Under the pieces are notes generated by a model. It had not been told where the DNA came from. It searched no databases and saw only the letters and a program-made list of their open reading frames with translations. A program made the translations under genes and the position numbers. A stretch of 60,393 nucleotides of DNA, counting the filler. It is 5 parts of 5 records of this genome, joined end to end, with 100 filler letters (N's around TTAATTAATTAA, not from the genome) between each part and the next. Parts side by side here need not be neighbours in the genome. Positions count along the whole stretch, not along the records: positions 32,932 to 48,553 come from SRR20825019_1504; 4 more parts are not named here. One strand, 5' to 3'. Below, piece after piece: positions 22,063 through 54,834 of the stretch; positions within the stretch are counted from its first letter, which is position 1; the number at the start of each line of letters is the position of its first letter.

Positions 22063-22066
22063 TTGG

Positions 22067-24882: not shown

Positions 24883-24886
24883 AAAT

Positions 24887-29458: not shown

Positions 29459-29768
29459 GATACTTACTTACTTTCTATATATACTTCAACGAATTGGGTT
29501 GGGTTGGGGGGTGTGGGAGAGAGGGGTGTGTGTGTTGGATGTTTTGATGAGAGACTATATGTTGAACGTTTGATTGTGTTCACAAAGTAGTTGCGTCACC
29601 ACTTTAAATAAATATATGTATTGTTGTTAAAGATGAGAGAGGAGATAGCAGGAAAGAACAACAATGCGCATCCAAATGTCTGTTTTGGAATAAAAAACAG
29701 AAAAAACAAAAAGGGGGATAATTGATGATAGCAACATACTTTGTAAAAAATAAATGAATAATAACTAA

Positions 29769-32831: not shown

Positions 32832-32931
32832 NNNNNNNNNNNNNNNNNNNNNNNNNNNNNNNNNNNNNNNNNNNNTTAATTAATTAANNNNNNNNNNNNN
32901 NNNNNNNNNNNNNNNNNNNNNNNNNNNNNNN
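32832..32931. other. Artificial contig spacer
   Basis: N44-TTAATTAATTAA-N44. Confidence 0.98.
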
Positions 32932-33198
32932 ACTCATGATTGAAAGGATTTATGCCCAAATAGGGCTGTTAAAAAATAATTGAACTCTTGATTTAAAAGC
33001 TGAGCCACATTCCCTAGCACTCACGTCACAAAGGCCGAAGGCATCGGATTTACTTATGGTATCCGGAGCGTCTTCCTTTTTTTGATTTTTTTGTGCTGCT
33101 TCCGATACATGGGATGTGTAGGATTTCATGGTTTTTGGTATTTGATTTACTTCCAGTAGCGCCATCGCTGTCACCTTTTTTTTGATGCTAACTGATGT

Positions 33199-33289
33199 AC
33201 GGCATCCCTTGCTGTGGGAGCCGTATAAAAAAGAAACCCCTCCGAGGGGAGGGGTCTGGCTTTATGCCGGCTACAGGAAGGGATGTTGT
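33199..33289 (+). other. Long imperfect stem-loop (ssDNA or RNA structure)
   Basis: Nested pairings ACGGCATCCCTT/AAGGGATGTTGT, AGCCG-TATAAA/TTTATG-CCGGCT, ACCCCTCC-GAGG-GGAGGGGT. Confidence 0.7.
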
Positions 33290-33985
33290 TGTTTTGCCAC
33301 CCAAAAAAGGAGGGACGGCTGGCTTAGCCAGGAAGATCAATTACGAAATAGGGGAAGTTCATATACCAGGAAAGCAGTACAAAACAAATAATAGGAGTCT
33401 AACCCTCATATAGAAGGTCACAGATGTAGTTTGGTGTGCCCACGAATAGCTGAGGTATTATTGAACTTAATGTACGATGATTGGCCAATTTGTACAGCAA
33501 CTAAGTGGTTTTATGTGAGCAGTTTAACAGAAGATATCGGATTTATAAAGTGAATTTTAATAAGACGAAATTTTAGTGGATAGAGACCTGGTTCGATAAA
33601 AGGAGGATACACCCGACATTACACAATAAAACGATAAAGGATTTGAAAGCGAAATGTATAACCAAAAATCAACGGCAAGACTCTTACTGACTGTCCTGTT
33701 TTTTGTAGCAAGTCCAACTACCTTAAGTACTATTGTGGAAAACTATAAGGTATCCTTGACTAAAAAATACGTTAACCCTATCGCCACTCTTCAAGTTGGT
33801 TGCTTAAAACAATAAACGGATGAATTTTTCATTGGAATTGAAACAATATGTAAGAAATCTTTAAACATTGTACGAAAAGGTTGTAGTTAAATATTATAAA
33901 TAAAACAGTAAAAGTGAAAAATACTTATCATGTTGCTATTTTTAAAATAAAATAATTAGTTTTATATGAATATCAGCCAAAACCA

Positions 33986-34558
33986 ATGCCAGAAAAAGAC
34001 CAAGAGTTGCTCTTTCGTCTTAGAAAAGATGATGTGATTGCTTATGAGGAGATTTACTCTAAATATGCAGAAAGACTTTTTGTCTATGCAATGAACATCT
34101 TCAAACAACAAGAACTTTGCGAAGATATTCTTCAAAATGTATTTATTCAGCTATGGGTGAAACGAAAGGAACATAAGGTTACTCATTTAAAAGCTTATTT
34201 GTACCAAGCGGTAAAGTTCCAAATTTTCAAGAAGTTGCGTAACCAACGTTTTACCGAGACAGATTTGACCAGGTTAAACCTAATTGATGCATCATTGAAT
34301 GTTTCCAGAAGAATGGAATATGATGAATTGGAGTCATGGATAGAGAAACTGGTGGATAATCTAAGTCCAAGATGTAGGGAGATTTTTATCATGAGTCGAT
34401 TTCAAGAAAAGTCGAACAAAGAAATCGCCGAAGAATTGGGTTTGTCCATACAATCCGTAAAAAACCAAATAAGCAAGGCCCTCAAGATTTTAAGGCAACA
34501 AATTTCACCTGAACAAATAGTCTTTAGCCAATCCCTGTTCTTCGTCTTCTTTATATAA
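33986..34558 (+). CDS. ECF sigma-70 factor (Bacteroidota FecI-like)
   Basis: EDILQNVFIQLW, LKAYLY, LSPRCREIF..SR...SNKEIAEELGLSIQSVKNQISKAL. Confidence 0.93.
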   Translation: MPEKDQELLFRLRKDDVIAYEEIYSKYAERLFVYAMNIFKQQELCEDILQNVFIQLWVKRKEHKVTHLKAYLYQAVKFQIFKKLRNQRFTETDLTRLNLIDASLNVSRRMEYDELESWIEKLVDNLSPRCREIFIMSRFQEKSNKEIAEELGLSIQSVKNQISKALKILRQQISPEQIVFSQSLFFVFFI

Positions 34559-34748
34559 GAACAAGTTTCTGATATATTTAGCATTGTCCTTTTGTGCTTA
34601 TTATAATGTCAATTTTATGCATAAATAAAATGTGCAATGACAAAAAATACACCTTAAAATTAAAAATAATGTAATCTCAACAGGTACCTTTTGATACGAT
34701 TTGGTACTTAGTATACAGAAGGACAATATGTTCAACTAAAAGAGCTAC

Positions 34749-35909
34749 ATGAGACACCTAAGTAAAAAAGAGGCCAAAAGCTTATTTGAAAAGTACCTTA
34801 ACGGTAAATGTACTGTTGCGGAAGAAGAGCTATTGGAAAGTTTTTTGGAATCATATCAAGATGACAGACATGATTGGTCTGACTTGGATTTTAATGAGAC
34901 CATAAAGCAGCAGGTTTGGGAAAGGTTGAAATCGAAGGTCATTACTAATGAAGAAGGTAGCGTGAGAAAAATATATAGTGCTTCTTGGCTCAAATATGCA
35001 GCTGTTTTTATCGGATTGACCCTCGCCTTCATGTCGAATTACTTATTCAGCATCCCAAAGGAGGAGCTTAATAAAATGGAAGGTGAAATGATAGTTCTTC
35101 AAACAGGAAAGGGAAAAAATAACCTCAATGAAAATAGGGCAGGGGAAATTACCAATGAATCTGGAAAAGTCATAGCATACCAACATAAAGGAGTACTTAC
35201 TTATAAGAAAGATAGTACTATCAAGGACATTGTTTATAACGAGATCAGTGTCCCAAAGGGAAAGACCTTTAAACTGGTCCTTTCGGACGGTACGAACGTC
35301 CACCTAAATGCTGGCACAAGATTAAAGTTTCCGGTCAATTTTTTACCCGATGGAAATAGAAAGGTATTCTTGGCAGGCGAGGCATTCTTTAAAGTTGAGC
35401 GAAATGAGCAGCTTCCTTTTATAGTTATGGCCAATGAACTGGAGGTTGAAGTGTTGGGCACACAATTCAATGTGAGTTCTTATGAAGGATCTACATATCA
35501 TACCGTATTGGTTGAAGGTAGTGTAAAGGTCAGTAACAATGGTGCTAAAGCCGTCAATTTTGCTCCCATGGTGATAAAACCAGGTCAGAAGGCCTCGTTG
35601 GTTCATGAAGGACTGAACATAAATGAGGTAGATGTAGAGGATTATATTGGTTGGACCAAAGATATACTCATTTTCAATGACGATTCATTTACGGAAATCA
35701 TTCAAAAGATAGAACGCCGATATAATGTAGAAGTTCAAAATAATTATACTGAATTGGATAAGGCTCGCTTTCACGGTAAGTTTAAGGAAGAGTCAATCAT
35801 AGACCTGATGGACACGTTCAAAGAAAGTGCAGGCTTTGATTATAAAATCGGTGACGGAAAAATAATAATAAACAAAAAACTAGATGCCTATGATGATATG
35901 AACAGATAA
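34749..35909 (+). CDS. FecR family anti-sigma factor
   Basis: Single TM, LSDGTNVHLNAGT, GEAFFKV, VLGTQFNV, LVEGSV. Confidence 0.93.
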   Translation: MRHLSKKEAKSLFEKYLNGKCTVAEEELLESFLESYQDDRHDWSDLDFNETIKQQVWERLKSKVITNEEGSVRKIYSASWLKYAAVFIGLTLAFMSNYLFSIPKEELNKMEGEMIVLQTGKGKNNLNENRAGEITNESGKVIAYQHKGVLTYKKDSTIKDIVYNEISVPKGKTFKLVLSDGTNVHLNAGTRLKFPVNFLPDGNRKVFLAGEAFFKVERNEQLPFIVMANELEVEVLGTQFNVSSYEGSTYHTVLVEGSVKVSNNGAKAVNFAPMVIKPGQKASLVHEGLNINEVDVEDYIGWTKDILIFNDDSFTEIIQKIERRYNVEVQNNYTELDKARFHGKFKEESIIDLMDTFKESAGFDYKIGDGKIIINKKLDAYDDMNR

Positions 35910-35913
35910 AAAA

Positions 35914-35941
35914 ATCGGGAAGTGGTGCAACACCTCCCGAT
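35914..35941 (+). promoter_or_regulatory. Hairpin in the fecR-susC intergenic region
   Basis: ATCGGGA-AGTG-GTGCAA-CACC-TCCCGAT preceded by an A run. Confidence 0.5.
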
Positions 35942-35993
35942 GATAATTGATTTTAATTGAAATGTTAGTAACTAATCAAAACCATTCAAAATT

Positions 35994-38900
35994 ATGCAAA
36001 AAATAGATTGGTTTCCAGACTTTCTGGAAAATATTCTTAACAAGAACCGAACTATGAAGCTCTCATTTTTTCTTTTGGTGTGTGCCTTGCTCAATGTGCA
36101 AGCGAATACATTTTCCCAAAAAACGAAAATAAATCTGAACGTGGAAAATGGGACCATCCAAAGTGTACTTGAAGAAATAGAGGCAAAAAGTGAATTCACT
36201 TTTTTTTACAAGATAGGTGAGATCAATGAGGATAGAATTGTTTCCCTTGAAGTAAGGAAGAAAAGTATACCAGAGATATTGGATATGATTTTTGCGGGAC
36301 AATACGTCAGTTATTCCATAGTGAAAAATCAAATTGTCCTTAAAAAAACCATCCATCCTATCATCACAAAGAGTGTGGAGGATCAAATTAAAAATATTCC
36401 ACCGCCCAAACCGAAAATTGTTCAACAGACGGTTAGTGGAACCATTGTGGATAACCAAGGGATTCCTATTCCGGGGGCCAGTGTAGTGGAAAAGAACACT
36501 ACAAATGGTGTAGCTGCAGATTTCGATGGTAATTATTCCCTTGAGATTTCTGGTCCGGAATCGGTATTGGTTTTCTCTTCCATTGGTTTTGCCAGACAAG
36601 AAATTACCGTTGGACTGTCAACCACTATTGATGTCGTCATGGTCGAGGATTCACAATCGCTGGATGAGGTTGTGGTCGTAGGATATGGAACTCAAAAGCG
36701 AAGAGATGTTACCGGTTCGGTTGCTTCTGTAGGTACAGAAGATATAGCAGATATACCGATGACCTCTATTGAAGGCGGAATGGTAGGTAGGATTCCGGGT
36801 TTAGATGTGGTTTCTTCCGGAACAGGACCTGGGTCTTCAACCCAATTGCAGCTGAGGGGGCAACGGTCTTTTACGGCTACAAACGACCCCTTGATTATTT
36901 TGGATGGATCCCCATACTATGGTACGTTAAATGATATCAACCCATATGATATTGAGAGTGTTGATGTGTTGAAAGACGCTTCTTCAACAGCTATTTATGG
37001 GGCTAGAGGGGCCAATGGTGTAATCATTATAACCACCAAAAGAGGAGTTACCGGAGCTCCCAGATTTGTCTTCGAAAGTTATGGAGGCCCTATAATGGCT
37101 TATGGTACCATACCTTATGCCAATGGGCCCCAATATGCTGAGATTGCTAGGGAAGCCTATCGGGCCATTGGCGACTATCCAGAAGGAGGTACCAGTGATG
37201 AATATGATGAAATAATATTCGACGAAATAGAAATAGAGAGCCTAAGGCGAGGTGACAATGGTTTAAACTATCAAGACCTGCTCTATGAGCATGGATTTCA
37301 ACAGAAGCACCAATTGACGGTCAGTGGCGGATCGGAAAAAGTAAAGTATAATTTTTCTGGAAACTATTTTCAGCAAGATGGAATAATACCCGGAGAAAAC
37401 TTTGACCGTTACAGTATGAGGACCAATTTGGACTTTACATTTTCACCAATTTTTACCGGAGGAGCTTCTATTCTATTGAATCATTCATACAACAGGAGAA
37501 AGTCAAGTGCGGCGCTGTTTCAAGCATTTCAGTCCAGTCCTCTGGGTAAATTATATGAGGATGATGGTACACCGAGGTTTACAGCAACAGCAGATGGCCT
37601 TTTGTTGAATCCATTGGCAGATTATATTTATGATTCCTACCGATGGGATAATAAAAGTTGGGGAGCTGTTTTAAATGTCTTTGTAGAAGCAAAGATAACG
37701 CCGGATTTGACCTATAGATTAAACCTTGGAACCAATTTCAAGTTAAGAACGATCAAAGAGTCAGCTGGCTATTACTCACTTGCAAGGAACCTTGGAACGG
37801 CCACTGCACAGGTGGACAACTCAGTGGATAATCTATTGTTGTATGAAAGTATCCTCACTTATAATAAACAGTTCAATGAGAAACATCAGTTGACCGTAAC
37901 AGCCATTCAGGGAATTCAAACAACCAGGTTGGAGACAAGTGGAGCAGGGGTAAGTGATCTTCCCTACGAGGATTCAAGATACCATAACCTAGGAAGCGCA
38001 ACCTTGGTGAATTCTGTAAGTTCTAATTTGATCGAAACCAACCTTCTGTCCTATGCAGGTAGACTTTTTTATGGTTATGACAGCAAATATCTTTTAACAC
38101 TGTCCATCCGTGCTGATGGCGCATCACAATTTTCACAAGATCATAAATGGGGGTATTTTCCATCTGCGGCATTTGCATATCGGATATCGGATGAAAATTT
38201 TATGAAAAGCACCAAAAATTGGTTGGATGATCTTAAACTAAGATTGAGCTATGGTGTTACCGGTAATCAGGGAATCAGTCCATATCAAACCCAAGGTGGT
38301 GCAGATAGAAGCGCTTATTCATGGAACGAAGTGCCCGGATTTGGGTATTACCCTACCGAATTGGAAAACAGGAACCTTAAATGGGAAACCACAGCAGTTT
38401 ATAATTTGGGAATGGATTTTAGGTTGTTCGGAGGAAGACTTTCGGGCAGTGTGGATATATACAACACCAATACCTACGATCTTCTTATGTTTCGTAAACT
38501 ACCAATTACCGCAGGGTATGATCAGGTTCTTCAAAATGTTGGTAAAACAAAGAACAAAGGTTTTGAACTATCCTTGAACTCGGTGAACATAGCGGCAGAA
38601 GATTTTAACTGGCGCACGGATTTAACGTTCTTTCGTAACAATACTGAAATTGACGAACTCTACAATGGAACGGTTGATGATGTTGGAAATAGATGGTTTA
38701 TCGGTGAACCAATCGAGGTTTTCTATGACTTTAAAAAGATAGGTATATGGCAAGAGAATGAAAGTGCTGAAGCTGCAAGTTACGGAGAGGAACCTGGCCA
38801 AATAAAAGTTTTGGATGTGGACAATGATGGAGCTATTACCGATGCGGACAGAATGGTATTGGGAAGTCCTCAACCCGATTTTGTGAGCAACATCACGAAT

Positions 38901-39365
38901 ACCTTTAAATACAAAAACTTTGACCTTTCTTTTCAGACCTATATTCGTTGGGGTGGAATGGCTTCAATAGGGCCTTTTGCTCCATTCTCCAAGAAGAGAT
39001 ACAATAAATTGGTTTTTGATTATTGGACACCAACAAACCCAACCAATAATTATCCAAGACCAAATCAGTTGTATGAGGGTAGCGGCTTGTATGGAAGTAC
39101 ATTGACATACAGGGATGCAAGTTTAATAAGCCTTCGCCAGGTTTCATTGGGATACCGTTTCCCGGACTCATTGATCGATAAAACGCCACTTTCAGGAATA
39201 AGACTTTATTTGTCAGGTGAGAATTTGGCCTACTGGACAAAATCCGAAATGCGGGATTTCAACATGAAAGCCGATTTGGCAGGAACTGTTGTTGATGGAA
39301 CAAGAACTATCTCATCTTACCCTGCCACAAGAACAGTTATTCTTGGTCTTAATGTTCAATTCTAA
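35994..39365 (+). CDS. susC: SusC-like TonB-dependent transducer with N-terminal STN signalling domain
   Basis: STN-like region, LDEVVVVGYG, VLKDASSTAIYGARGANGVIIITTK, LKWETT, terminal F. Confidence 0.95.
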   Translation: MQKIDWFPDFLENILNKNRTMKLSFFLLVCALLNVQANTFSQKTKINLNVENGTIQSVLEEIEAKSEFTFFYKIGEINEDRIVSLEVRKKSIPEILDMIFAGQYVSYSIVKNQIVLKKTIHPIITKSVEDQIKNIPPPKPKIVQQTVSGTIVDNQGIPIPGASVVEKNTTNGVAADFDGNYSLEISGPESVLVFSSIGFARQEITVGLSTTIDVVMVEDSQSLDEVVVVGYGTQKRRDVTGSVASVGTEDIADIPMTSIEGGMVGRIPGLDVVSSGTGPGSSTQLQLRGQRSFTATNDPLIILDGSPYYGTLNDINPYDIESVDVLKDASSTAIYGARGANGVIIITTKRGVTGAPRFVFESYGGPIMAYGTIPYANGPQYAEIAREAYRAIGDYPEGGTSDEYDEIIFDEIEIESLRRGDNGLNYQDLLYEHGFQQKHQLTVSGGSEKVKYNFSGNYFQQDGIIPGENFDRYSMRTNLDFTFSPIFTGGASILLNHSYNRRKSSAALFQAFQSSPLGKLYEDDGTPRFTATADGLLLNPLADYIYDSYRWDNKSWGAVLNVFVEAKITPDLTYRLNLGTNFKLRTIKESAGYYSLARNLGTATAQVDNSVDNLLLYESILTYNKQFNEKHQLTVTAIQGIQTTRLETSGAGVSDLPYEDSRYHNLGSATLVNSVSSNLIETNLLSYAGRLFYGYDSKYLLTLSIRADGASQFSQDHKWGYFPSAAFAYRISDENFMKSTKNWLDDLKLRLSYGVTGNQGISPYQTQGGADRSAYSWNEVPGFGYYPTELENRNLKWETTAVYNLGMDFRLFGGRLSGSVDIYNTNTYDLLMFRKLPITAGYDQVLQNVGKTKNKGFELSLNSVNIAAEDFNWRTDLTFFRNNTEIDELYNGTVDDVGNRWFIGEPIEVFYDFKKIGIWQENESAEAASYGEEPGQIKVLDVDNDGAITDADRMVLGSPQPDFVSNITNTFKYKNFDLSFQTYIRWGGMASIGPFAPFSKKRYNKLVFDYWTPTNPTNNYPRPNQLYEGSGLYGSTLTYRDASLISLRQVSLGYRFPDSLIDKTPLSGIRLYLSGENLAYWTKSEMRDFNMKADLAGTVVDGTRTISSYPATRTVILGLNVQF

Positions 39366-39376
39366 AAATAATAGTT

Positions 39377-41008
39377 ATGAAAAGACGTATCAATATAGCA
39401 ATACTAAACATTATAATCGCTGCTTCATTGAGCAGTTGTTCCAGTGATTTTCTGGATGAAGAAAAGATAGTATCCCCGCCGATCAACACTTATTTTACCA
39501 CGGAAAAGGGGTTCAACGACCTTGTCAATTCCAACTATACGTTTACAAGGACGCTGTTTGCCGGGGGAAATAATTTTGCCCCGCTGGTTTTCTTTGGAAC
39601 AGATCTTTGGACCAATGGATCTGATGGAACATTTATCGAGTTCAATGCCTACAATTCCGGCATCCAACCCGCTAATCCGGTTCTTTGGAATTTGTGGTCG
39701 CCTTTTTATCAAGGTATAGCGGCCTGTAATACCGCTATATCTAGAGCAGGTGAAGTAGAGGAAATGTCCGAGAGCGAAATCAATCAAAAGGTAGCGGAAT
39801 CATACTTTTTACGAGCATGGTATTATCATATTTTGGTTGTTCATTTCGGAGGGGTACCCTTGGTAACAGAGGAGGTGACCGATGTGGTAACAACGGCTAC
39901 AAGGGCGTCCGAATCTGAGGTGTATACACAAATTGTACAGGATTTATTATTTGCAGAACAGCATCTTCCCGAAACCCAAGATGATTTTGGTAGAGCCACC
40001 AAGGCTGCCGCTCAAGCTTTATTGGCAAGGGTTTACTTGACCCTTGGGCAAAATGACAATGCTGCAGCGTATGCCGAAAAGGTAATCAATGATTATGGTT
40101 TTTCACTCCTGGACGATTATTCACGTCTTTGGGATGTGGACAATAGAGTGAATTCAGAAGTGATTTGGTCCATACAATTCTCTCAGGATGAAAGACTTAA
40201 TGGTAGTGGAAATGCCTATTTTCTTTACTTTACACCAAGGTATGATCTTCAACCTGGAATGACAAGGGCTTTGGAAAATGATCGTCCATGGCCGCGATTT
40301 GTGGCGACCCGTTACTACTTTGATTTATTGGCTTCTAACCGCGAAAATGATTCGAGGTTTGCTAAATCATGGAAAACGGCTTGGATAGCAAATAATGAAT
40401 CCACCCTCGCAGGTAATATGCAAATTGGTGATACAGCCTTTATTTATGTTCCATGGGACATACCGGATAGTGAAGAAGCAATTTTGGAGCAAAAATACGG
40501 TGTTTTCGATATCAATGATTTGTATGATGGTGAAGATCCAACTGGTTCAAGAGAACTTTTTCCACATATGAGAAAATACAAGGATCCATTAAGACCATCT
40601 ATTAATAGTGGGATAGGGACCAAAAATGTAATCGAAATCCGATTGGCCGAAATGTATTTGATCGCTGCCGAAGCCCATATGAAGGAGGGCAACCTCGCCG
40701 AAGCGGTCGATCATATCAATACGATAAGACATCGAGCTGCATGGCCTGGAAAAGAGTTGGAAATGGAAGTCACCGAAGACCAGCTCGATATAGATTTTAT
40801 CTTGGATGAAAGAGCATTGGAGTTGGGGGCAGAACGGCTTAGGTGGGCCGATTTAAAAAGAACAGGCAAACTTATTGAAAGAGTGCAAATGTACAATGTA
40901 CTTGGAAGGGACAATATTGAAGAAAAGCATTTACTACGTCCTATTCCTAGCAATATGATAGATCGACTTACCAACCGTGAGGAGTTTGAACAAAATCCTG
41001 GGTATTAA
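39377..41008 (+). CDS. susD: SusD/RagB family lipoprotein
   Basis: Lipobox LSSC, FLRAWYY...FGGVP, RLAEMYLIAAEA, ERALEL..E..RWADLKR, QNPGY end. Confidence 0.95.
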   Translation: MKRRINIAILNIIIAASLSSCSSDFLDEEKIVSPPINTYFTTEKGFNDLVNSNYTFTRTLFAGGNNFAPLVFFGTDLWTNGSDGTFIEFNAYNSGIQPANPVLWNLWSPFYQGIAACNTAISRAGEVEEMSESEINQKVAESYFLRAWYYHILVVHFGGVPLVTEEVTDVVTTATRASESEVYTQIVQDLLFAEQHLPETQDDFGRATKAAAQALLARVYLTLGQNDNAAAYAEKVINDYGFSLLDDYSRLWDVDNRVNSEVIWSIQFSQDERLNGSGNAYFLYFTPRYDLQPGMTRALENDRPWPRFVATRYYFDLLASNRENDSRFAKSWKTAWIANNESTLAGNMQIGDTAFIYVPWDIPDSEEAILEQKYGVFDINDLYDGEDPTGSRELFPHMRKYKDPLRPSINSGIGTKNVIEIRLAEMYLIAAEAHMKEGNLAEAVDHINTIRHRAAWPGKELEMEVTEDQLDIDFILDERALELGAERLRWADLKRTGKLIERVQMYNVLGRDNIEEKHLLRPIPSNMIDRLTNREEFEQNPGY

Positions 41009-41032
41009 TCTGTTGTTAAAAAACTGATAATC

Positions 41033-41671
41033 ATGGTTGTTTTAAGATTAAAAGAACCCTTTGGAAAAAGGGTTCTTATACTCCTAATATTCATATTTTG
41101 TTGTTCGGCAGCATATTCTCAACGTTTGGATTCGCCATGTGATAAAGAGAATGTTTCCAAATGGTATAAGAGCAAGGTTTGGATGAATGGCTTACAGTTG
41201 AAGCCGCACAGATCAATCGATAAAGAGGAACTGGCACGTCAATATTGTGCCAATCCCAATTGGTGGGACCAGGCATTTGAATTTCTGGCCTCCCACAATC
41301 TAGAAACCCTTGAACCCGGTCGATATATTATTGATGAGGGAAATGTTACTGCCTTTGTTTCTGAAGGGCCCACAAAGGATATATCGGAAATTAATTGGGA
41401 AACCCATCAAAATTTCAATGATCTACAATACGTGGCCATTGGTAGAGCCGGTATGGGCGTTACGTCATTAAAAACCGCTAGGTATAGTTCCAGTGCTGCC
41501 TATGACCCCAAAAGAGATGTAGAGAACTATAATGTGGAAAACGGAAAATTCTATGTGGCCAGGCCAGGTATGTTCTTCATTTTTTCACCAAAAGACATTC
41601 ATCGTCCTGCCTATAGGAAAAAGGGCCATGATACGATAAAGAAAGTCTTGATCAAGGTCAGGGTTCCATAA
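41033..41671 (+). CDS. YhcH/YjgK/YiaL (NanQ-like) protein with predicted signal peptide
   Basis: ETHQNFNDLQY, FFIFSPKDIHRP, IKKVLIKV; hydrophobic leader ending AYS|Q. Confidence 0.82.
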   Translation: MVVLRLKEPFGKRVLILLIFIFCCSAAYSQRLDSPCDKENVSKWYKSKVWMNGLQLKPHRSIDKEELARQYCANPNWWDQAFEFLASHNLETLEPGRYIIDEGNVTAFVSEGPTKDISEINWETHQNFNDLQYVAIGRAGMGVTSLKTARYSSSAAYDPKRDVENYNVENGKFYVARPGMFFIFSPKDIHRPAYRKKGHDTIKKVLIKVRVP

Positions 41672-41731
41672 AGTAAAAGCTAAAATATTAAAAATGAACT
41701 AATTGAGGTGTTAGTTGTAAAATAAAACATT

Positions 41732-42697
41732 ATGAAAAAAGTATTTTTAACATGTATTGCCATAGTATGTACCGTTGTTGGTCTGCAATCACAGAATGTG
41801 GTGTGGCAACCAGAAACTATCAAATCGTTGACTTCTGAATGGACCGGGGAAAGAACTCCAGATGGTAGGCCCAAAGTCTCAGACCAACTCCTCGAAAGGC
41901 TAAAGACACTTTCCATGGAAGAGGTATGGGGCTCCTTGAGAAACTTTGGATATCATAACCAATTCGAAAATTTTGCCAGCCCATATGAGAATGGTTGGGA
42001 AATATTACATCCGGACCAGGTCATGACGGGCCGGGTAGTTACTGCCCAATTTATGCCTTTGCGGGAAGACTTCAATAAGTACATACAAAAACAGGCCGAA
42101 AAAGAAGGAACTAAAACACCGGTCACTAACTATGCACCCATAAACAAATTGATGAATGGAGATGTCTATGTGGCGGATAGCTATGGAAAAATGGCAGATG
42201 GAACATTGATTGGTGACAATCTTGGAAACGCAATTTATAAAGCAGGTAAAAGGGGGGTGATATTTAATGGCTCATTACGCGATGTTGAGGGGCTTTCGGA
42301 AATAGAAGGATTTAATTTTTGGATTCGCGGATCGGACCCATCGGCGATCAAACAAATGCTGACAGCCAGTGTAAATGCACCGATCCGTATTGGACGGGTG
42401 ACAGTACTTCCAGGCGATGTAGTTCTTGCCAAATCTACCGGAGTAGCCTTTATCCCTCCACATTTGGTGCAAAAAGTGGTGATTGCGGGCGAATTTACGG
42501 CACTTTATGACGAGTATATCAAGTTTGCCATGAATACTAATAAATATGAATACGTAAATGAGCGATTTGTAGTAGATGATGATGTATTGGAGAAGGATTT
42601 CAAGGCATGGTTGAACAAACATCCAAATTTACCAATGCCAAAGAAGGAATTGGATAACTATTTAAAGGAGAGAGAACAAAAGAGGAGAGATAGCTGA
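41732..42697 (+). CDS. RraA/HMG-aldolase family protein 1, secreted
   Basis: Signal LQS|Q; GRVVTAQFMP, GDVYVAD, IGDNL, GSLRD, IGRVTVLPGDVV. Confidence 0.85.
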   Translation: MKKVFLTCIAIVCTVVGLQSQNVVWQPETIKSLTSEWTGERTPDGRPKVSDQLLERLKTLSMEEVWGSLRNFGYHNQFENFASPYENGWEILHPDQVMTGRVVTAQFMPLREDFNKYIQKQAEKEGTKTPVTNYAPINKLMNGDVYVADSYGKMADGTLIGDNLGNAIYKAGKRGVIFNGSLRDVEGLSEIEGFNFWIRGSDPSAIKQMLTASVNAPIRIGRVTVLPGDVVLAKSTGVAFIPPHLVQKVVIAGEFTALYDEYIKFAMNTNKYEYVNERFVVDDDVLEKDFKAWLNKHPNLPMPKKELDNYLKEREQKRRDS

Positions 42698-42725
42698 AAT
42701 CAAAAATGTCTAAACAAATAAGAAA

Positions 42726-43661
42726 ATGAAAAAAGCAATAATTATATTCTCAATCATGACTGTTTTAGGAAACTTACAGGTGTTTGCACAAAACATTGGT
42801 GCATCTCCGGAGTATGTTAAAACATTGACATCCCAGTGGAAGGGTGAAAGATATAAAGATGGTAGGCCTAAAGTTTCGGATTTGGTATTGGAGCGACTTG
42901 AGCATGCTACTTTGGAGCAGGTGTGGGGTTACATGATGCGCAAAGGTTATCGAAACCAGGTGGAACTGGATTGGGTAGTGCTAAAACCTGGTGAGGTTAT
43001 GACCGGGCGCGTGGTTACAGCCCAATTTATGCCTACTAGACCGGATTTGGATAGTATTATTAGGGTACAAGGCAAACTTGAGGGGCGGCCACAAAGAGGA
43101 GGTATAAACACATGGCCCATTGATGTGTTGGACAAAAATGATATTTATGTGGCCGATGGCTATGGCAAAATCAAAGATGGTACCCTTATCGGTTCCAGTT
43201 TAGGTAATTCCATATATGGTAAAACCGGAAAGGGTATCATATTCTATGGTTCTATAAGGGATATGCAAGAACTCAAGGAAACCAAAGGCTTCAATGCATG
43301 GGTAAAGGGGCACCACCCTTCTTTTATCAAGGACATGACACCAACTTCGATCAATGCACCCATACGGATTGGTGAAGTAACAGTATTTCCGGGAGACATT
43401 GTTTTCGCCAATGAATATGGAGTAGCTTTTATTCCCGCCCATATGGTCAATGATTTGGTCTCATCTGCAGAAATGACCTCTCTTAATGATGAGTTTGAAA
43501 GATACTTGTTACAGCAGAACAAATATCCTACTGGAGAGATACATGGCGAATGGTCTGATAAAATTGCCAATGAATTTAGGGCATGGATCGAGAAATATCC
43601 GAAGCCACTTACGGTTACCAAGGAAGATGTAGAAAATTATTTGGCCAAAAGAAAACATTGA
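42726..43661 (+). CDS. RraA/HMG-aldolase family protein 2, secreted
   Basis: Signal VFA|Q; GRVVTAQFMP, IGSSL, GSIRD, IGEVTVFPGDIV. Confidence 0.85.
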   Translation: MKKAIIIFSIMTVLGNLQVFAQNIGASPEYVKTLTSQWKGERYKDGRPKVSDLVLERLEHATLEQVWGYMMRKGYRNQVELDWVVLKPGEVMTGRVVTAQFMPTRPDLDSIIRVQGKLEGRPQRGGINTWPIDVLDKNDIYVADGYGKIKDGTLIGSSLGNSIYGKTGKGIIFYGSIRDMQELKETKGFNAWVKGHHPSFIKDMTPTSINAPIRIGEVTVFPGDIVFANEYGVAFIPAHMVNDLVSSAEMTSLNDEFERYLLQQNKYPTGEIHGEWSDKIANEFRAWIEKYPKPLTVTKEDVENYLAKRKH

Positions 43662-43704
43662 TGAGCTTCAGACTTAAACCGGACTGTCAATTTATCCTAA
43701 GATT

Positions 43705-44640
43705 ATGATTTATAGAAAGCTTCACATACTGTTATCAGTTATTTTTTTTATCACAACAGGATTATCGCTGATTGGCCAGACCATGTCCAAAGAAGAACTA
43801 ATTTTTCTAACATCGGAATGGAAGGGGGAGAGGTTTGAGGACGGTCGTCCTAGAATTCCAAATGATGTATTGAAAAGAGCTGCGAAAATTGGAATAGATG
43901 ATGCGTGGACCGTTTTGGAAAACAAAGGCTATACCAATCAGTTTGAAGGGAATTGGAAAATGGTGCACGATGATGTACCGGTCGTAGGAAGGGCATTGAC
44001 AGCAGTTTTTATGCCCAGTCGTCCAGATGTTGAGAGAAACATAAAGGAAAGAGGCATAAATTCCCATGGAAGAAAAGGAAATACAAATTCTTGGCCTATA
44101 GAAGTCCTTTCTGATGGAGATGTTTATGTGGCCGATAGTTTTGGGAAAATCGATGCTGGGACTCTTATGGGGGCTACGCTCGCCACTTCAATTTTTAGTA
44201 AATCCGGTAATGGTGTGGTATTCAATGGAAGTGCTAGGGATTTAGAGGCCATAAGTGAAATTGAAGGGTTCAATGCATTTGTCCGTGATTTTCACCCTTC
44301 ATTTTTGGAAGAAGAAGTATTAATGGGACTCAATACCCCTATTAGAATAGGAAACGTAATGGTTCTTCCAGGAGATTTGGTGTTGGCTAAAAGGGAAGGT
44401 GTCTTGTTCATACCGGCCCATCTGGCAGAACTAGCCATATCAACTGCTGAGTTTGTAGGGTTAAAGGACAAGTTTGGATTTGAAATGGTAAGGTCAAAAA
44501 CATACACAACTGGTGAAATCGACAATAAATGGACCGATGCTATCAAAGATGATTTTTTAGAATGGCTGGGCAATCACCCAGAATACGGTAGCATGTCCAA
44601 GGAACAGTTGGATAACGTTCTAAGTGAAAGAACTTGGTAA
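43705..44640 (+). CDS. RraA/HMG-aldolase family protein 3, secreted
   Basis: Signal LIG|Q; GRALTAVFMP, MGATL, GSARD, IGNVMVLPGDLV. Confidence 0.85.
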   Translation: MIYRKLHILLSVIFFITTGLSLIGQTMSKEELIFLTSEWKGERFEDGRPRIPNDVLKRAAKIGIDDAWTVLENKGYTNQFEGNWKMVHDDVPVVGRALTAVFMPSRPDVERNIKERGINSHGRKGNTNSWPIEVLSDGDVYVADSFGKIDAGTLMGATLATSIFSKSGNGVVFNGSARDLEAISEIEGFNAFVRDFHPSFLEEEVLMGLNTPIRIGNVMVLPGDLVLAKREGVLFIPAHLAELAISTAEFVGLKDKFGFEMVRSKTYTTGEIDNKWTDAIKDDFLEWLGNHPEYGSMSKEQLDNVLSERTW

Positions 44641-44671
44641 AGAATTAATCATTAATTAAAAATAAATCGAA

Positions 44672-45151
44672 ATGTCAAAGTTTGGTAAGTATATCATGCT
44701 CATCACCATTTTTTGTGTATCCTGTATCGGGGAGAGTCAAAAGGAAAGTGATGTTTCAGTTGCGCAGATTGAAGAACTGGATGAAAACCACTGGAAGGGA
44801 ATACAAAAAATTATTACCGATATCAACAATGCGATGGTAAATGCAGACAGTATTCAACTTAATAAGTTGACCTCAGATGCATTGACCTATGGTCATTCCA
44901 GTGGACTAATTCAGAACAAAAGTGAATTTATAAACGATGTTGTCAATGGACCCTTCAACTTTTCCATGATCGATAACCCTGAACAGAATATATACCTGTT
45001 CGATAATACGGCTATCGTAAGGCATGTGTTTCAAGCCAAGGCTACTAATAATGGAGAACAAGTGGATATTCGAATAGGAAATATCCAAGTTTATCAAAAG
45101 AACAAAACTGGAATTTGGAAGTTATTGGCTCGCCAAGCATACAAATTATGA
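44672..45151 (+). CDS. NTF2-like (DUF4440) lipoprotein
   Basis: Lipobox CVSC; LTYGHSSG...KSEFI, AIVRH, WKLLARQA. Confidence 0.8.
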   Translation: MSKFGKYIMLITIFCVSCIGESQKESDVSVAQIEELDENHWKGIQKIITDINNAMVNADSIQLNKLTSDALTYGHSSGLIQNKSEFINDVVNGPFNFSMIDNPEQNIYLFDNTAIVRHVFQAKATNNGEQVDIRIGNIQVYQKNKTGIWKLLARQAYKL

Positions 45152-45183
45152 AAAAAACTTGTACAACTTAACTAATATATATT

Positions 45184-46278
45184 TTGAAAAAATTAAAAAT
45201 TCATTCCTACGTATTGATCATCGCAGGACTTTTACTATTGACATATTCGATTATGGTCGCAACAGGCAGTATTGAGTCGGGCGGTATCCTGCTTGTAGGT
45301 TTTTTTATTTTGCTAGCGATTGGATTTTCAGGATATGAAAACCTTAAAGGTTATGTGTTTGCCGCATTAATTTTCGCGGGAGTTGTTCTCTCTTTATATT
45401 GGCCAAATTATTTTGTTCAAATTGGGGATTTCAAACTCACAAATTTGATTATACCGTTAATCCAAATTATCATGTTTGGAATGGGTACTTCAATGAGTAT
45501 CAGGGATTTTGCGGAAATCATTACATCCCCTAAGGGTGTTTTTGTTGGGGTTTCGGCACAATTGGCTATAATGCCACTTGTAGGTTTTCTTCTTGCAAAA
45601 ATCAGTGGTTTTCCTCCTGAAATTGCAGCAGGTATTGTTCTGATTGGGTGTTCGCCCAGTGGGGTTGCCTCAAACGTAATGGCCTATCTGGCCAAGGCCA
45701 ATCTGGCCCTTTCAATAACTATTACCTCTGTTGCAACACTTTTGGCACCTTTTGTTACACCTTTGTTAATGAAAATTCTTGCGGGTCAGTTTGTGGAGAT
45801 CGATGTGCTTACGATGATGTGGAGCATTACCAAGATGATTATATTGCCTATAGGAGCAGGATTGTTGTTCAACCACTTATTACATGGTCGAACTAAATGG
45901 CTGGACAAGGCCATGCCCTTAACATCAATGTTGGCAATCGGATTAATTATTATAGTTATTACAGCAGCTGGACGTGATAGTTTGTTGGATATAGGAGGCT
46001 TACTTTTGCTGCTTGTATTGGCGCACAACCTATTTGGTTACCTTTTTGGGTATTTGTATGCACGTTTGGTAGGAATGAATGAACGAGATGCTCGTACCAT
46101 ATCCATTGAGGTTGGGATGCAAAATGGCGGTTTGGCTTCTGGAATAGCCAATACACTTGGAAAGATAGCTACAATGGGTCTTGCACCTGCAGTATTCGGG
46201 CCGTTAATGAATATTACTGGTTCCATTTTAGCTTCATATTGGCATAAAAAAACACCAAATCAAGTTATCAATTCATGA
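45184..46278 (+). CDS. Bile acid:sodium symporter (BASS) family transporter
   Basis: IMFGMG, GCSPSGVASNVM, SIEVGMQNGGLA; TTG start. Confidence 0.92.
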   Translation: MKKLKIHSYVLIIAGLLLLTYSIMVATGSIESGGILLVGFFILLAIGFSGYENLKGYVFAALIFAGVVLSLYWPNYFVQIGDFKLTNLIIPLIQIIMFGMGTSMSIRDFAEIITSPKGVFVGVSAQLAIMPLVGFLLAKISGFPPEIAAGIVLIGCSPSGVASNVMAYLAKANLALSITITSVATLLAPFVTPLLMKILAGQFVEIDVLTMMWSITKMIILPIGAGLLFNHLLHGRTKWLDKAMPLTSMLAIGLIIIVITAAGRDSLLDIGGLLLLLVLAHNLFGYLFGYLYARLVGMNERDARTISIEVGMQNGGLASGIANTLGKIATMGLAPAVFGPLMNITGSILASYWHKKTPNQVINS

Positions 46279-46319
46279 ACAAATATAAATTTAAGTTGTT
46301 TGAGTTTGTTTAGTTGATT

Positions 46320-46360
46320 GGGAAGAGAATAGCATGCCCATCATGTCCTCTTCCCTTTTT
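46320..46360 (+). terminator. Terminator-like hairpin between BASS and kdgK
   Basis: GGGAAGAG...CTCTTCCC-TTTTT. Confidence 0.55.
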
Positions 46361-46384
46361 AATTCTCACAAAAAATATACAAAA

Positions 46385-47431
46385 ATGAAAAAAGTAGTAA
46401 CGTTCGGGGAGATCATGCTTCGTTTGGCCCCTCCGGGATTTTTAAGGTTTTCACAAGCAAACTCCTTTGATGTGGTCTATGGCGGAGGGGAGTCTAACGT
46501 AGCGGTTTCGCTGGCCAATTATGGAGTTCCGGTCGATTTTGTGACGCGGTTGCCCAAGAACGACATAGGGGATTGTGCCCTTATGGAAATGCGCAAGCGT
46601 GGTGTTGGTACGGACAAGGTCATATTTGGAGGCGATCGTCTGGGTATCTATTTTTTGGAGACCGGTGCCGTTACCCGTGGCAGTAAGGTGGTCTACGACC
46701 GAGCACATTCGGCCATGGCCGAGATCGAGCAGGGCATGGTAGATTGGAAAGCTGTCTTTGAGGGTGTGGAATGGTTCCATTGGACAGGGATCACCCCTGC
46801 GATTTCCCAAGGCGCGGCCGATGCCTGTCTGGAGGCTGTAAAGGTGGCCAGTGATATGGGAGTTACCATATCCACGGACCTTAACTACCGCGCCAAACTC
46901 TGGAAATACTGTGATGATGCCAAACGTGAGGAGATCATGTCGGAGCTCACCTCCTACTGTGACATCGTCCTTGGGAACGAGGAAGATGCGGAGAAGCACT
47001 TCGGGATCAAGCCCGAAGGGCTGGACATTACCACCCAGGGAGAGCACGTAAAGGCGGAAGCATTCCTATCGGTCTGTGAACAGATGATGAAACGTTTCCC
47101 ACGGGCCAAGAAGGTGATCACCACACTAAGGGGCTCCCTATCGGCATCGCACAACACATGGGCAGGAGTACTTTATGACGGGAAGACCATGTACAAGTCC
47201 CCCGAATACCAGATCACCCACATAGTGGACCGTGTCGGAGGAGGGGACTCCTTTATGGGCGGTTTGATCTACGGACTGCTCAAGTACCCTGAGGACGACC
47301 AGAACGCACTGGATTTTGCCGTAGCGGCATCCTGCCTAAAGCACACCATAAAGGGAGATGCCAACTTGGCAACAGTGGCCGAAGTAGAAAAATTGATGAG
47401 TGGCGATGCCTCCGGAAGGGTGGCCAGATAA
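46385..47431 (+). CDS. kdgK: 2-dehydro-3-deoxygluconokinase (PfkB family)
   Basis: VTFGEIMLRL, GGGESNVA, DLNYRAKLW, DRVGGGDSF; adjacent to eda; ATG at 46385. Confidence 0.88.
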   Translation: MKKVVTFGEIMLRLAPPGFLRFSQANSFDVVYGGGESNVAVSLANYGVPVDFVTRLPKNDIGDCALMEMRKRGVGTDKVIFGGDRLGIYFLETGAVTRGSKVVYDRAHSAMAEIEQGMVDWKAVFEGVEWFHWTGITPAISQGAADACLEAVKVASDMGVTISTDLNYRAKLWKYCDDAKREEIMSELTSYCDIVLGNEEDAEKHFGIKPEGLDITTQGEHVKAEAFLSVCEQMMKRFPRAKKVITTLRGSLSASHNTWAGVLYDGKTMYKSPEYQITHIVDRVGGGDSFMGGLIYGLLKYPEDDQNALDFAVAASCLKHTIKGDANLATVAEVEKLMSGDASGRVAR

Positions 47432-47452
47432 AAAATCACAAAGCACATAAAA

Positions 47453-48124
47453 ATGGCACAATTTTCAAGAATTGATGTAGTGAACGCAATGAGGGATACA
47501 GGAATGGTCCCTCTTTTTTACCACCCCGATATAGCGTTGGGCAAAAAGGTGCTCAAGGCCTGTTACGATGGCGGGGCAAGATTGATGGAGTTCACCGCCC
47601 GGGGCGATTATGCCTATGAAGTGTTCTCCGAGCTGAACAAGTATGCAATCAAAGAACTGCCCGGTATGATCATGGGAGTCGGTTCCATAACGGATGCAGC
47701 AGCAGCATCGCTGTACATGCAGATGGGGGCCAATTTTATAGTGACCCCTTCCTTAAGGGAAGACATAGCGCTGGCCTGCAACCGCCGAAAAGTACTTTGG
47801 TCCCCTGGCTGCGGATCTTTGACGGAGATCAACCGTGCGGAAGAGCTTGGCTGCGAAGTCATCAAGCTTTTTCCTGGCTCCACCTACGGCCCCGGGTTCG
47901 TGAAGGCAATCAAGGGCCCCCAGCCCTGGACGAGCATCATGCCCACCGGTGGAGTGAGCACCGAGGAATCTAACTTAAAAGGATGGTTCGATGCGGGTGT
48001 TACCTGCGTGGGCATGGGATCCAAACTGATCAGCAAGGATATTTTGGCCAATAAAGATTTTGAAGATCTTGAACATTTGGTCAGGGAAACTTTGGCTACG
48101 ATTATCAAAATAAGAAACTTATAG
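47453..48124 (+). CDS. eda: KHG/KDPG aldolase
   Basis: EFTAR, GVGS, GANFIVTP, IKLFPG, MPTGGV, CVGMGS. Confidence 0.92.
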   Translation: MAQFSRIDVVNAMRDTGMVPLFYHPDIALGKKVLKACYDGGARLMEFTARGDYAYEVFSELNKYAIKELPGMIMGVGSITDAAAASLYMQMGANFIVTPSLREDIALACNRRKVLWSPGCGSLTEINRAEELGCEVIKLFPGSTYGPGFVKAIKGPQPWTSIMPTGGVSTEESNLKGWFDAGVTCVGMGSKLISKDILANKDFEDLEHLVRETLATIIKIRNL

Positions 48125-48474
48125 CCCTTATTTAATTACTCGCTTATTGTTGTAAGTCCAGGATGAGACTGAGCACTAGTTAAAACCATAGTTACGATGA
48201 ATACTGATGTATTTATTTCAACTACAAATATTGAAAATTCAATATTTTGATTTACCAAAAATCTAAAGCTTAAAATAGATTTAGTATTTAATTTGGGAGG
48301 ATTATCCAGAATTTACATAATGTGGATTTAGTTATAAAATATTTGGTACTTTTTGAACAGTTTTGACTATTTTTATTCTCTGGAGGACATGTACTTATAC
48401 TCAATCTATACAAAAATGTGCAATAAGGTGTACAGGATTTAAGATACCAGTTTTGGTTTCTGATTTACAGTAAC

Positions 48475-48552
48475 TTATAAAAATATGGATGGTCCAGTTA
48501 TGATCTTCCCTTGCACACCGATTTCGCTGCCCTTGGCGGTGTACTTTTCGAG
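48475..48552 (-). pseudogene. ssb: Truncated single-stranded DNA-binding protein fragment
   Basis: Hand translation LEKYTAKGSEIGVQGKIIT then GPSIFL*; matches the SSB EKY..KG....EGKL.T segment, then loses similarity where the DNA turns AT-rich. Confidence 0.55.
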
Positions 48553-48553
48553 G

Positions 48554-48653
48554 NNNNNNNNNNNNNNNNNNNNNNNNNNNNNNNNNNNNNNNNNNNNTTA
48601 ATTAATTAANNNNNNNNNNNNNNNNNNNNNNNNNNNNNNNNNNNNNNNNNNNN
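48554..48653. other. Artificial contig spacer
   Basis: N44-TTAATTAATTAA-N44. Confidence 0.98.
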
Positions 48654-48680
48654 GGGTGCTAACCGCTACACTATAAGAGA
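48654..48680 (-). tRNA. 5' fragment of a tRNA (isotype unknown, anticodon cut off)
   Basis: Reverse complement TCTCTTA-TA-GTGT-AGCGGTTA-GCAC-CC = acceptor strand, U8A9, D-arm/A-box. Confidence 0.7.
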
Positions 48681-48738
48681 ACGGATGGAATCACTATTTT
48701 TGGCGGTCGAACTTTTCTCTATTTAAAGCAAATCCATC

Positions 48739-54808: not shown

Positions 54809-54834
54809 ACTTAGCTGCGCACGCTAAAACGTTT

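Follow-up and report, generated by a model that had tools for sequence, protein, structure and literature searches.

The genes of SusC/SusD loci are interpreted almost wholly through their carbohydrate-active enzymes (CAZymes), and loci that carry no CAZyme are usually left unexplained. One such locus occupies positions 33986-48124 of the 60,393-base stretch of DNA analysed here (the window), where the SusC and SusD genes are followed by genes for a YhcH-like protein, three RraA-like proteins, a DUF4440 protein, a BASS transporter, KdgK and Eda. What would such a locus take up, and what would it do with it? Gene content, leaders, a catalytic motif, protein fold, synteny and co-occurrence were observed, and from these we infer the chemical steps, the substrate and the BASS cargo. 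With a probability of roughly 0.5, the locus would carry out a periplasmic step on 2-keto-3-deoxy sugar acids (ring opening and RraA-type cleavage), BASS would import the resulting 2-oxo acid, and KdgK and Eda would form a cytoplasmic branch.

The window consists of five contigs (1-13650, 13751-26369, 26470-32831, 32932-48553 and 48654-60393) with four N44-TTAATTAATTAA-N44 spacers between them (13651-13750, 26370-26469, 32832-32931 and 48554-48653). As the contigs are unjoined, gene neighbourhoods across the joints are unusable and only 32932-48553 counts as context. For comparison, species-representative genomes were scanned with the three RraA paralogues. From at least 596 coding stretches found in this way, the 80 best loci were retained, and their 1,035 open reading frames (ORFs) were clustered. 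The closest of these 80 is a locus of Flagellimonas marina (L001), with 75-77% DNA identity over 33861-42680 and 44823-48039. The locus contig and its 12 ORFs, all on the + strand, are as follows.

32932..48553: contig with the RraA/SusCD locus, fourth of five, 15,622 nt (15.6 kb), bounded by the N runs 32832-32931 and 48554-48653.
33986..34558, + strand: extracytoplasmic function (ECF) sigma factor, Bacteroidetes type (TIGR02985 141.6 bits, cut-off 126.4; Sigma70_r2 and r4_2; 82% identity to L001).
34749..35909, + strand: FecR-type anti-sigma factor (FecR and FecR_C; 74% identity to L001).
35994..39365, + strand: SusC/RagA TonB-dependent transporter whose N-terminal STN signalling domain spans residues 69-118 (TIGR04056 844 bits; also Plug and CarboxypepD_reg).
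39377..41008, + strand: SusD-family lipoprotein (SusD_RagB, SusD-like_3; leader ending in Cys).
41033..41671, + strand: predicted secreted YhcH/DUF386-family protein, candidate anomerase/ring opener (PF04074 113 bits, E 1.4e-32).
41732..42697, + strand: predicted secreted RraA-like protein 1 (RraA1), 321 aa, D-X20-R-D motif (PF03737; leader plus Gln; 85% identity to L001).
42726..43661, + strand: predicted secreted RraA-like protein 2 (RraA2), 311 aa, S-X20-R-D-X2-E motif (PF03737; 48% identity to RraA1).
43705..44640, + strand: predicted secreted RraA-like protein 3 (RraA3), 311 aa (PF03737; 42% identity to RraA1).
44672..45151, + strand: DUF4440 (NTF2-like) protein with lipoprotein-type leader (PF14534, E 6.4e-11).
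45184..46278, + strand: long-form BASS/SBF transporter, 364 aa, with an additional N-terminal hydrophobic region (PF01758 137 bits, E 7e-40).
46385..47431, + strand: PfkB kinase of the 2-keto-3-deoxygluconate (KDG) kinase type, kdgK (PF00294; start moved from 46334 to the ATG at 46385).
47453..48124, + strand: KDPG/KHG aldolase, Eda (NF005499 375.7 bits, cut-off 275).

ORF calls, Pfam and NCBIfam thus bear out the 12 co-oriented genes described in a sequence-only reading of this DNA, the start of kdgK being most likely the ATG at 46385 rather than 46334. SusC is 90% identical to its L001 counterpart and 61% to that of a locus in genome G511 (L120); the corresponding values for SusD are 91% and 60%. 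Intergenic gaps from susC to the BASS gene measure 11-60 bp (11 bp between susC and susD), and no terminator-like hairpin was found in the 106-bp gap between BASS and kdgK. The same reading had seen no recognisable CAZyme, sulfatase or esterase, and this holds: at E <= 0.01, none of the 12 proteins carries a Pfam domain of a glycoside hydrolase, lyase, carbohydrate esterase, other esterase or sulfatase, and no CAZyme was found within 6 kb downstream or 2 kb upstream of the F. marina orthologue. The locus therefore has the adjacent susC/susD pair of a polysaccharide utilization locus (PUL) and lacks the CAZyme, as judged by Pfam on the 12 proteins and on the L001 flanks. Its Pfam annotation also includes no NanA-type gene and no semialdehyde dehydrogenase.

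The enzymes that stand in the place of CAZymes appear to be exported. In the YhcH-like protein and in RraA1-3, a basic N-terminus precedes a hydrophobic stretch (Kyte-Doolittle maximum over 9 residues of 2.8-3.9), after which come a small residue and then Gln; the sigma factor, FecR and Eda reach maxima of 0.5-1.9. Among 111 RraA family members from related loci, a hydrophobic leader was present in all 68 in which the search pattern located the conserved motif; the other 43 were left uncounted, and by eye nearly all carry the same leader. The Gln after the leader is invariant across the 106-sequence family alignment, which matches the Q-rule described for signal peptidase I substrates of Bacteroidetes (PMC5837995, PMC10653852). 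Leaders were also present on the YhcH orthologues of L001, L002, L030 and L120 and on all members of the DUF4440 cluster. An N-terminal leader followed by Gln had been described for these four proteins, and the hydropathy and residue pattern agree with a Sec (general secretory) leader of this kind; the family-wide leaders and the invariant Gln further support a periplasmic location, so that the YhcH-like and RraA-like proteins are predicted to be periplasmic.

RraA1-3 match PF03737 with E-values of 2e-17 to 2e-19 (64-70 bits). Sequence searches of the Protein Data Bank (PDB) returned RraAS2 of Streptomyces coelicolor (5x15, profile E 3e-23), the HMG/CHA aldolase 3noj (8e-12; HMG, 4-hydroxy-4-methyl-2-oxoglutarate; CHA, 4-carboxy-4-hydroxy-2-oxoadipate), 3k4i and a number of RraA proteins. 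RraA1 was modelled with AlphaFold2 from 106 sequences; the model had a mean confidence (pLDDT) of 90.1, and its best Foldseek matches were 3k4i, 5x15, 3noj and 2c5q, together with yeast YER010Cp. The model is RraA-like in fold, with TM-scores of 0.74-0.91 normalised to 3k4i, 5x15 and 3noj, at 16-23% identity to the solved structures. Ahead of the RraA domain the family has about 50 further conserved residues, and behind it three helices, with about 60 additional residues at the C-terminus. PDB 5ir2 shares the RraA fold and bears the depositors' title 'novel cellulases from microbes associated with the gut ecosystem'.

In the alignments to 3noj, D162, R183 and D184 of RraA1 correspond to Asp-102, Arg-123 and Asp-124 of 3noj, and R183 and D184 are invariant in 112 family sequences. 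In the Pseudomonas putida HMG/CHA aldolase, Asp-124 and Glu-199 are described as metal ligands and Arg-123 as essential because it stabilises the pyruvate enolate; the same source reports that most homologues have one of two motifs for metal binding and catalysis and hence are probably class II pyruvate aldolases (PMC5065237). Position 162 separates the paralogues: it is Asp in 33 of 42 RraA1-type sequences and Ser in 34 of 35 of the RraA2 type, and among 35 RraA3-type sequences it is Ala in 20 and Asp in 9. Ser or Ala at this position goes with Glu187, and Asp with Gly187. The role of Asp-102 in the HMG/CHA aldolase and the wording of the alternative motif are assumed here. The window paralogues have Asp (RraA1), Ser (RraA2) and Ala (RraA3) at position 162, and RraA3, with Ala, Glu-186 and Ala-187, fits neither motif pattern cleanly while keeping the Arg and the Asp. 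Scores with the CHA/HMG aldolase equivalogs TIGR02798 and NF006731 were 45-51 bits, where the cut-offs are 179 and 304.5. Taken together, we see an even chance that the RraA-like proteins are periplasmic metal-dependent C3-C4 lyases whose 2-oxo-acid product BASS imports.

RraA2 and RraA3 are 67-76% and 67-75% identical to the first and the second gene product, respectively, of an adjacent pair common in Spirosoma, Larkinella, Pontibacter and related genera, and just 47% and 43% identical to the two RraA proteins of a second F. marina locus. The 2.1-kb rraA2-rraA3 segment has no counterpart in L001, and the pair was probably transferred into the window locus.

How far does this arrangement extend beyond the window? 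L001 has the order sigma, FecR, SusC, SusD, YhcH, RraA1, DUF4440, BASS, kdgK and eda, with a single RraA gene. The core SusC-SusD-YhcH-RraA recurs in L001, in F. aequoris (L002), in a Sphingobacterium metagenome-assembled genome (MAG; L030) and in L120. BASS follows it in L001, L002 and L120, and is absent from the stretch of L030 covered. The full string susCD-yhcH-rraA(n)-DUF4440-BASS-kdgK-eda, put forward as a recurring neighbourhood, is not widely conserved: YhcH occurs in 3 of the 80 loci plus L120, and kdgK-eda follows BASS only in Flagellimonas. DUF4440 gave a tblastn match in 8 of the 80 and is present in the second F. marina locus (L089) too.

The frequent partners of the RraA genes are of another kind. 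MR_MLE (enolase-superfamily) or UxuA-like proteins are encoded in 52 of the 80 loci and directly adjoin an RraA gene in 47; counting all partners that would form or ring-open a keto-deoxy acid, the figure is 58. BASS was found in 20 loci, SusC in 24, FecR in 13 and sulfatase in 8, and three loci contain a pyrroloquinoline quinone (PQQ)-cytochrome c dehydrogenase. The MR_MLE representative matches structures of ManD and of galactonate, rhamnonate and talarate/galactarate dehydratases. Within the N-terminal 70 residues, the twin-arginine (Tat) pattern RRx[FILVM][LIFMV] occurs in 55 of 61 MR_MLE proteins of nearly full length, 12/12 UxuA-like, 3/3 RidA and 2/2 SelA-like proteins, against 1/109 RraA and 0/19 BASS proteins as controls, and TatC was found in the three genomes checked. 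In L065, L078 and L080, the genes between SusD and RraA-BASS encode a SelA-like enzyme of the pyridoxal phosphate (PLP) type and a RidA, both with Tat signals, which suggests periplasmic deamination of an amino sugar acid. L055 and L056 encode five to nine dehydratase (enolase-superfamily) paralogues around one to three RraA genes, a ratio that would follow if RraA worked on a less diverse keto-deoxy pool. These dehydratases and SelA-like enzymes would make 2-keto-3-deoxy acids. Thus the earlier proposed link to such acids is supported, either by a Tat-signal acid-sugar dehydratase encoded next to the RraA gene or, in three loci, by SelA-like plus RidA.

Two further observations concern the distribution of these families. 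A conserved secreted protein of about 324 aa without Pfam match (cluster 22) is encoded beside UxuA-like, MR_MLE and RraA genes in L003, L013, L018, L060 and L079. Two Gemmatimonadota MAGs (L016 and L017) encode RraA1-type proteins 70-71% identical to that of the window, so the RraA family is not limited to Bacteroidota.

The transporter also follows the RraA genes. The window BASS protein contains the SBF domain and scores 231.7 bits with TIGR00841, below its cut-off, and 220.3 with the PanS equivalog, whose cut-off is 400. In an even sample of 401 Bacteroidota genomes (RraA at E <= 1e-50, BASS at E <= 1e-60; the RraA and BASS samples were taken as identical, the same genome handles appearing in both listings), the secreted RraA family was found in 23 (about 5-6%), a BASS match in 29 and both in 19. 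Eight of the ten genomes with BASS only have just a short form, without the N-terminal extension. With 1.5-kb flanks, 30 BASS loci were obtained, 22 with a long-form and 8 with a short-form gene; RraA and/or MR_MLE genes lay within 1.5 kb of 18 of the 22 long-form genes (two of them being the F. marina loci) and of none of the 8 short-form genes. Co-occurrence and adjacency of long-form BASS and the secreted RraA family therefore support the suggestion that BASS takes up the product.

YhcH is the rarer partner. The protein passes the family model TIGR00022 (72.4 bits, cut-off 45.5) and stays below the NanQ equivalog NF040884 (57.6 bits, cut-off 160). It aligns to PDB 9jrr and 1jop, and ExH, DxQ and HxP motifs common to all three are assumed to provide its metal ligands. 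Among 201 sampled Flavobacteriaceae, only F. marina has a secreted orthologue; seven others encode shorter YhcH proteins of 30-34% identity that align only from residue 49-78. In Escherichia coli, YhcH is described as a cytoplasmic Zn anomerase that opens cyclic N-acetylneuraminate (Neu5Ac) and passes the open form to the aldolase NanA (PMC8141875). Every variant of the module encodes an enzyme expected to yield a 2-keto-3-deoxy acid beside secreted RraA-like genes and a specific BASS; the window locus has a ring-opening helper in its stead, which would fit a substrate arriving in keto-deoxy (ulosonic) form. We rate at even odds that this locus, free of CAZymes, serves the SusC/SusD uptake of a small acidic sugar already of the 2-keto-3-deoxy (ulosonic) pattern. 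Candidates from algal and bacterial cell-wall chemistry are 3-deoxy-D-manno-octulosonate (Kdo), 3-deoxy-lyxo-heptulosarate (Dha), 2-keto-3-deoxynononate (KDN) and KDG-type acids.

The pathway that we propose would run in six steps. A ligand at STN-SusC would signal through FecR to the ECF sigma factor and switch the operon on, and the substrate would enter the periplasm. There, the secreted YhcH-like metalloprotein would accelerate ring opening. The secreted RraA-fold enzymes, presumably metal-dependent, enolate-stabilising and of the class II pyruvate aldolase kind, would then split the C3-C4 bond of the open 4-hydroxy-2-oxo acid into pyruvate and an aldehyde; the three paralogues might serve different C4/C5 configurations or chain lengths. 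The long-form BASS would import the 2-oxo-acid product with Na+. Finally, KdgK and Eda, which Flagellimonas would have gained downstream as a cassette, would handle uncleaved keto-deoxy-hexonate. In the commoner variants, Tat-exported enolase-superfamily or UxuA-like dehydratases would replace YhcH and make the keto-deoxy acid from an aldonate in the periplasm, and in three loci the SelA-like PLP enzyme and RidA would take this place.

Several points weigh against this pathway. Signal peptides were judged only by a hydropathy heuristic, conservation and motif counts, and ORFs of related loci were called simply (first ATG, at least 90 aa), with some N-termini wrong. RraA2 and RraA3 lack the Asp-102 equivalent, and the NCBIfam scores for RraA/aldolase, NanQ, BASS, PanS and KDG kinase all fall under the curated cut-offs. 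A kinase-aldolase pair for KDG right after BASS in all three Flagellimonas-type loci argues for import of at least part of the keto-deoxy acid in intact form, for which full cleavage in the periplasm would leave no need. Lastly, the sole RraA-like enzyme of a flavobacterium to have been characterised, FlDet from Flavobacterium sp. UMI-01, is described as dehydrating and decarboxylating 2-keto-3-deoxy-hexarate (PMC8563752). Its activity ties the RraA fold in this class to keto-deoxy sugar acids already, and not to aldol cleavage. Retro-aldol cleavage as the sequence-only reading had worded it is thus not supported: we infer it, and FlDet is a dehydratase/decarboxylase rather than an aldolase (PMC8563752).

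FlDet leads directly to the best of the rival explanations, in which the same module operates with RraA-like enzymes that eliminate the 4-hydroxyl (as a dehydratase, possibly decarboxylating) and BASS imports a 2-oxo-acid semialdehyde such as alpha-ketoglutarate semialdehyde. Its basis is the RraA-like nature of this KDGR dehydratase/decarboxylase, to which are added matches to NF009399, an RraA-like region fused to a fumarylacetoacetate-hydrolase family protein (E 1e-17 to 3e-21, under cut-off), and a conserved Arg-Asp pair that would suit any enolate chemistry. However, decarboxylation requires a dicarboxylic substrate, YhcH is known as an aldolase helper (PMC8141875) and the locus contains no semialdehyde dehydrogenase. 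FlDet itself came from cell extract and is about 27 kDa, compared with about 33 kDa for the mature window proteins, and the passages that describe it mention no leader (PMC8563752). We consider elimination improbable next to C3-C4 cleavage.

The kdgK-eda pair calls for another alternative, namely that BASS imports intact KDG-type acids for KdgK and Eda, while the RraA-like proteins leave that pool untouched and convert other isomers or derivatives to the kinase substrate or act on a side product. The BASS-kdgK-eda triad ends both F. marina loci and has the same order in the window, and kdgK is found near RraA-MR_MLE-MFS genes in L033 and L036. The second F. marina locus, L089 (G001:C2:390000-409900), reads sigma, FecR, SusC, SusD-like_2, Tat-MR_MLE, RraA, DUF4440, RraA, MR_MLE, BASS, kdgK and eda. 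Its kdgK and eda products are 98% and 99.5% identical to those of L001, within a 2.7-kb DNA duplication that begins inside BASS; the BASS copies differ far more, that of L089 being closer to a Chitinophagaceae MAG protein (65%). Window kdgK is 91% identical to L001 and 92% to L089, and eda 77% to both F. marina copies. The best NCBIfam matches of kdgK are KDG/2-keto-3-deoxygalactonate (KDGal) kinases, all under cut-off, with the kinase half of a KHG/KDPG aldolase-kinase fusion model on top (492.7 against 700).

Composition sets these two genes apart. GC content at third codon positions (GC3) is 0.60 in kdgK and 0.59 in eda versus 0.35-0.40 in the other ten window genes, with AT-rich flanks on both sides; in L001 the values are 0.73 and 0.72 versus 0.32-0.41 in seven of the other eight genes and 0.51 in BASS. 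In one algal metagenome run, depth was 36-50 over 46478-48040 and 1.5-9.4 elsewhere on the contig (about five-fold), and contigs diverged at 46374 and 48128, the edges of the GC-rich block. Composition, duplication, depth and contig breaks together indicate that kdgK-eda is a separately evolving cassette, placed or homogenised behind the BASS of both loci, which argues for a functional tie in the Flagellimonas lineage and also shows that the cassette lies outside the conserved core. Consistently, kdgK was found by clustering in 2 of the 80 related loci, with a partial hit in L036 besides, kdgK-eda adjoins BASS in 2 of the 30 BASS loci, both of F. marina, and it directly follows BASS only in Flagellimonas. 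With its foreign composition and its other contexts, the cassette looks like a late add-on, whereas BASS tracks RraA genes (within 1.5 kb in 16 of 22 long-form loci). Intact import as the main route is therefore, in our view, a little less probable still than elimination.

A non-sugar substrate, either an aromatic- or lignin-derived 4-hydroxy-2-oxo acid (HMG, CHA) or an oxaloacetate-like acid, is very unlikely. PDB 3noj and the named NCBIfam models closest to these proteins are indeed CHA/HMG aldolases, but the equivalog scores fall far short of their cut-offs, the annotated clusters of the 80 loci contain no ring-cleavage dioxygenase or hydratase genes, and the partners are acid-sugar dehydratases, UxuA-like proteins, PQQ dehydrogenases, sulfatases, YhcH and KdgK/Eda. 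Least likely of all, the RraA-fold proteins would be unclassified glycan-cleaving enzymes of an ordinary PUL with unrecognised CAZymes, given that 5ir2, with its cellulase title, is matched both by the family profile (E 3.6e-8) and, in Foldseek, by the model (E 5.5e-13), but no paper behind 5ir2 was found, the conserved residues are those of a pyruvate-aldolase site and the neighbours are small-molecule enzymes.

Returning to periplasmic cleavage by the RraA-like proteins, a wider and more tentative proposal can be made. Bacteroidota might have a cofactor-free periplasmic route in which SusCD imports aldonates or ulosonic acids, Tat dehydratases or a NanQ-like anomerase yield the open keto-deoxy acid, RraA aldolases split it, and long-form BASS takes up pyruvate only. 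The YhcH variant would then target free ulosonic acids (Kdo, Dha, KDN) of algal or bacterial cell walls. To our knowledge no gene has so far been assigned to Kdo aldolase activity, and such a route, if true, would supply one.

The locus contig was also compared with contigs of two sequencing runs. In run X2 a 15,622-nt contig equals it end to end, and in run X1 a 14,661-nt contig equals 33893-48553 with 0 differences. Assembly chimerism at the GC shift could thereby be ruled out, as the contigs of X1 and X2, which come from different studies, span it with zero differences; X2 is possibly the source of this DNA. In both runs, one 248-nt record at about twice the contig depth overlaps the first (32932-32961) and last (48524-48553) 30 bases of the contig. 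A second path departs from each contig end in X1 and X2, and the F. marina flanks differ. From the shared end record, the 15.6-kb locus either circularises or has a direct repeat of about 250 bp at both sides. The 1-kb leader region (32932-33985) contains no ORF of at least 80 aa, and a repeat search of the contig returned paralogue matches and short, weak repeats only. A sigma-70 promoter scan, whose model does not describe Bacteroidota-type promoters, was at chance (37 found, 41.2 expected).

As for the other contigs, 26470-32831 and 48654-60393 have a GC content of about 0.5 and long ORFs for eukaryote-type PSP1, SMC, V-ATPase subunit H and protein kinase. The contigs 1-13650 and 13751-26369 have a GC content of about 0.33 and carry a 6S-Flavo RNA (RF01685; 8289-8399, - strand; 87.4 bits, narrowly above the gathering score of 85). 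The presence of eukaryote-like contigs beside AT-rich flavobacterial ones shows that the record mixes organisms.

These results outline a recurrent alternative design for SusC/SusD loci, made of secreted RraA-fold enzymes, Tat-exported acid-sugar dehydratases and a specific BASS. If the proposed pathway is true, part of central sugar-acid breakdown shifts to the periplasm, a function is gained for a large clade, so far unannotated, of the RraA, enolase and BASS families, and the use of oxidised sugars by marine and soil Bacteroidota is explained. The cultured Flagellimonas marina CGMCC 1.15774 has two such loci, which makes the hypothesis directly testable. No description of secreted RraA-like proteins in combination with SusCD, BASS or Tat-exported dehydratases of the enolase superfamily was found in the searchable full text, which does not cover subscription journals and supplements; this is in line with the earlier statement that no locus of this design has been characterised.

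Compared with known systems, the window locus resembles PULs in its adjacent SusC and SusD, the STN domain on SusC, the ECF sigma factor with FecR and the co-oriented, closely spaced genes. It differs from them in that neither it nor the flanks of its F. marina orthologue encode a glycoside hydrolase, lyase, esterase or sulfatase, in that its enzymes act on small molecules, and in that its inner-membrane transporter is BASS, not of the major facilitator superfamily (MFS) or SGLT type. With HMG/CHA aldolase and the RraA-like class II pyruvate aldolases (3noj, 2c5q, 1j3l), the RraA-like proteins share the fold, the Arg-123/Asp-124 equivalents and, in RraA1, the D-X20-R-D spacing. HMG/CHA aldolases are cytoplasmic and belong to aromatic catabolism, whereas the window proteins have leaders, N- and C-terminal extensions and a sugar-acid context.

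FlDet, compared here by its description, is likewise a flavobacterial member of the RraA family with a 2-keto-3-deoxy sugar acid as substrate; this protein of about 27 kDa is encoded next to an alginate lyase (PMC8563752). The E. coli NanQ/YhcH-NanA pair offers the same combination of a DUF386 protein encoded beside a presumed keto-deoxy-acid aldolase, although both partners are described as cytoplasmic and NanA as a class I (Schiff-base) enzyme, in contrast to the leaders and the RraA fold found in the window (PMC8141875).

The dehydratase-RraA pairs of the related loci, finally, imply the same order of reactions as the non-phosphorylative Entner-Doudoroff and Dahms routes. Both run in the cytoplasm with aldolases of the DHDPS/NAL or HpcH type, whereas the enzymes of the RraA module carry Tat or Sec leaders. 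The module behind the window SusCD locus may represent a new pathway location.

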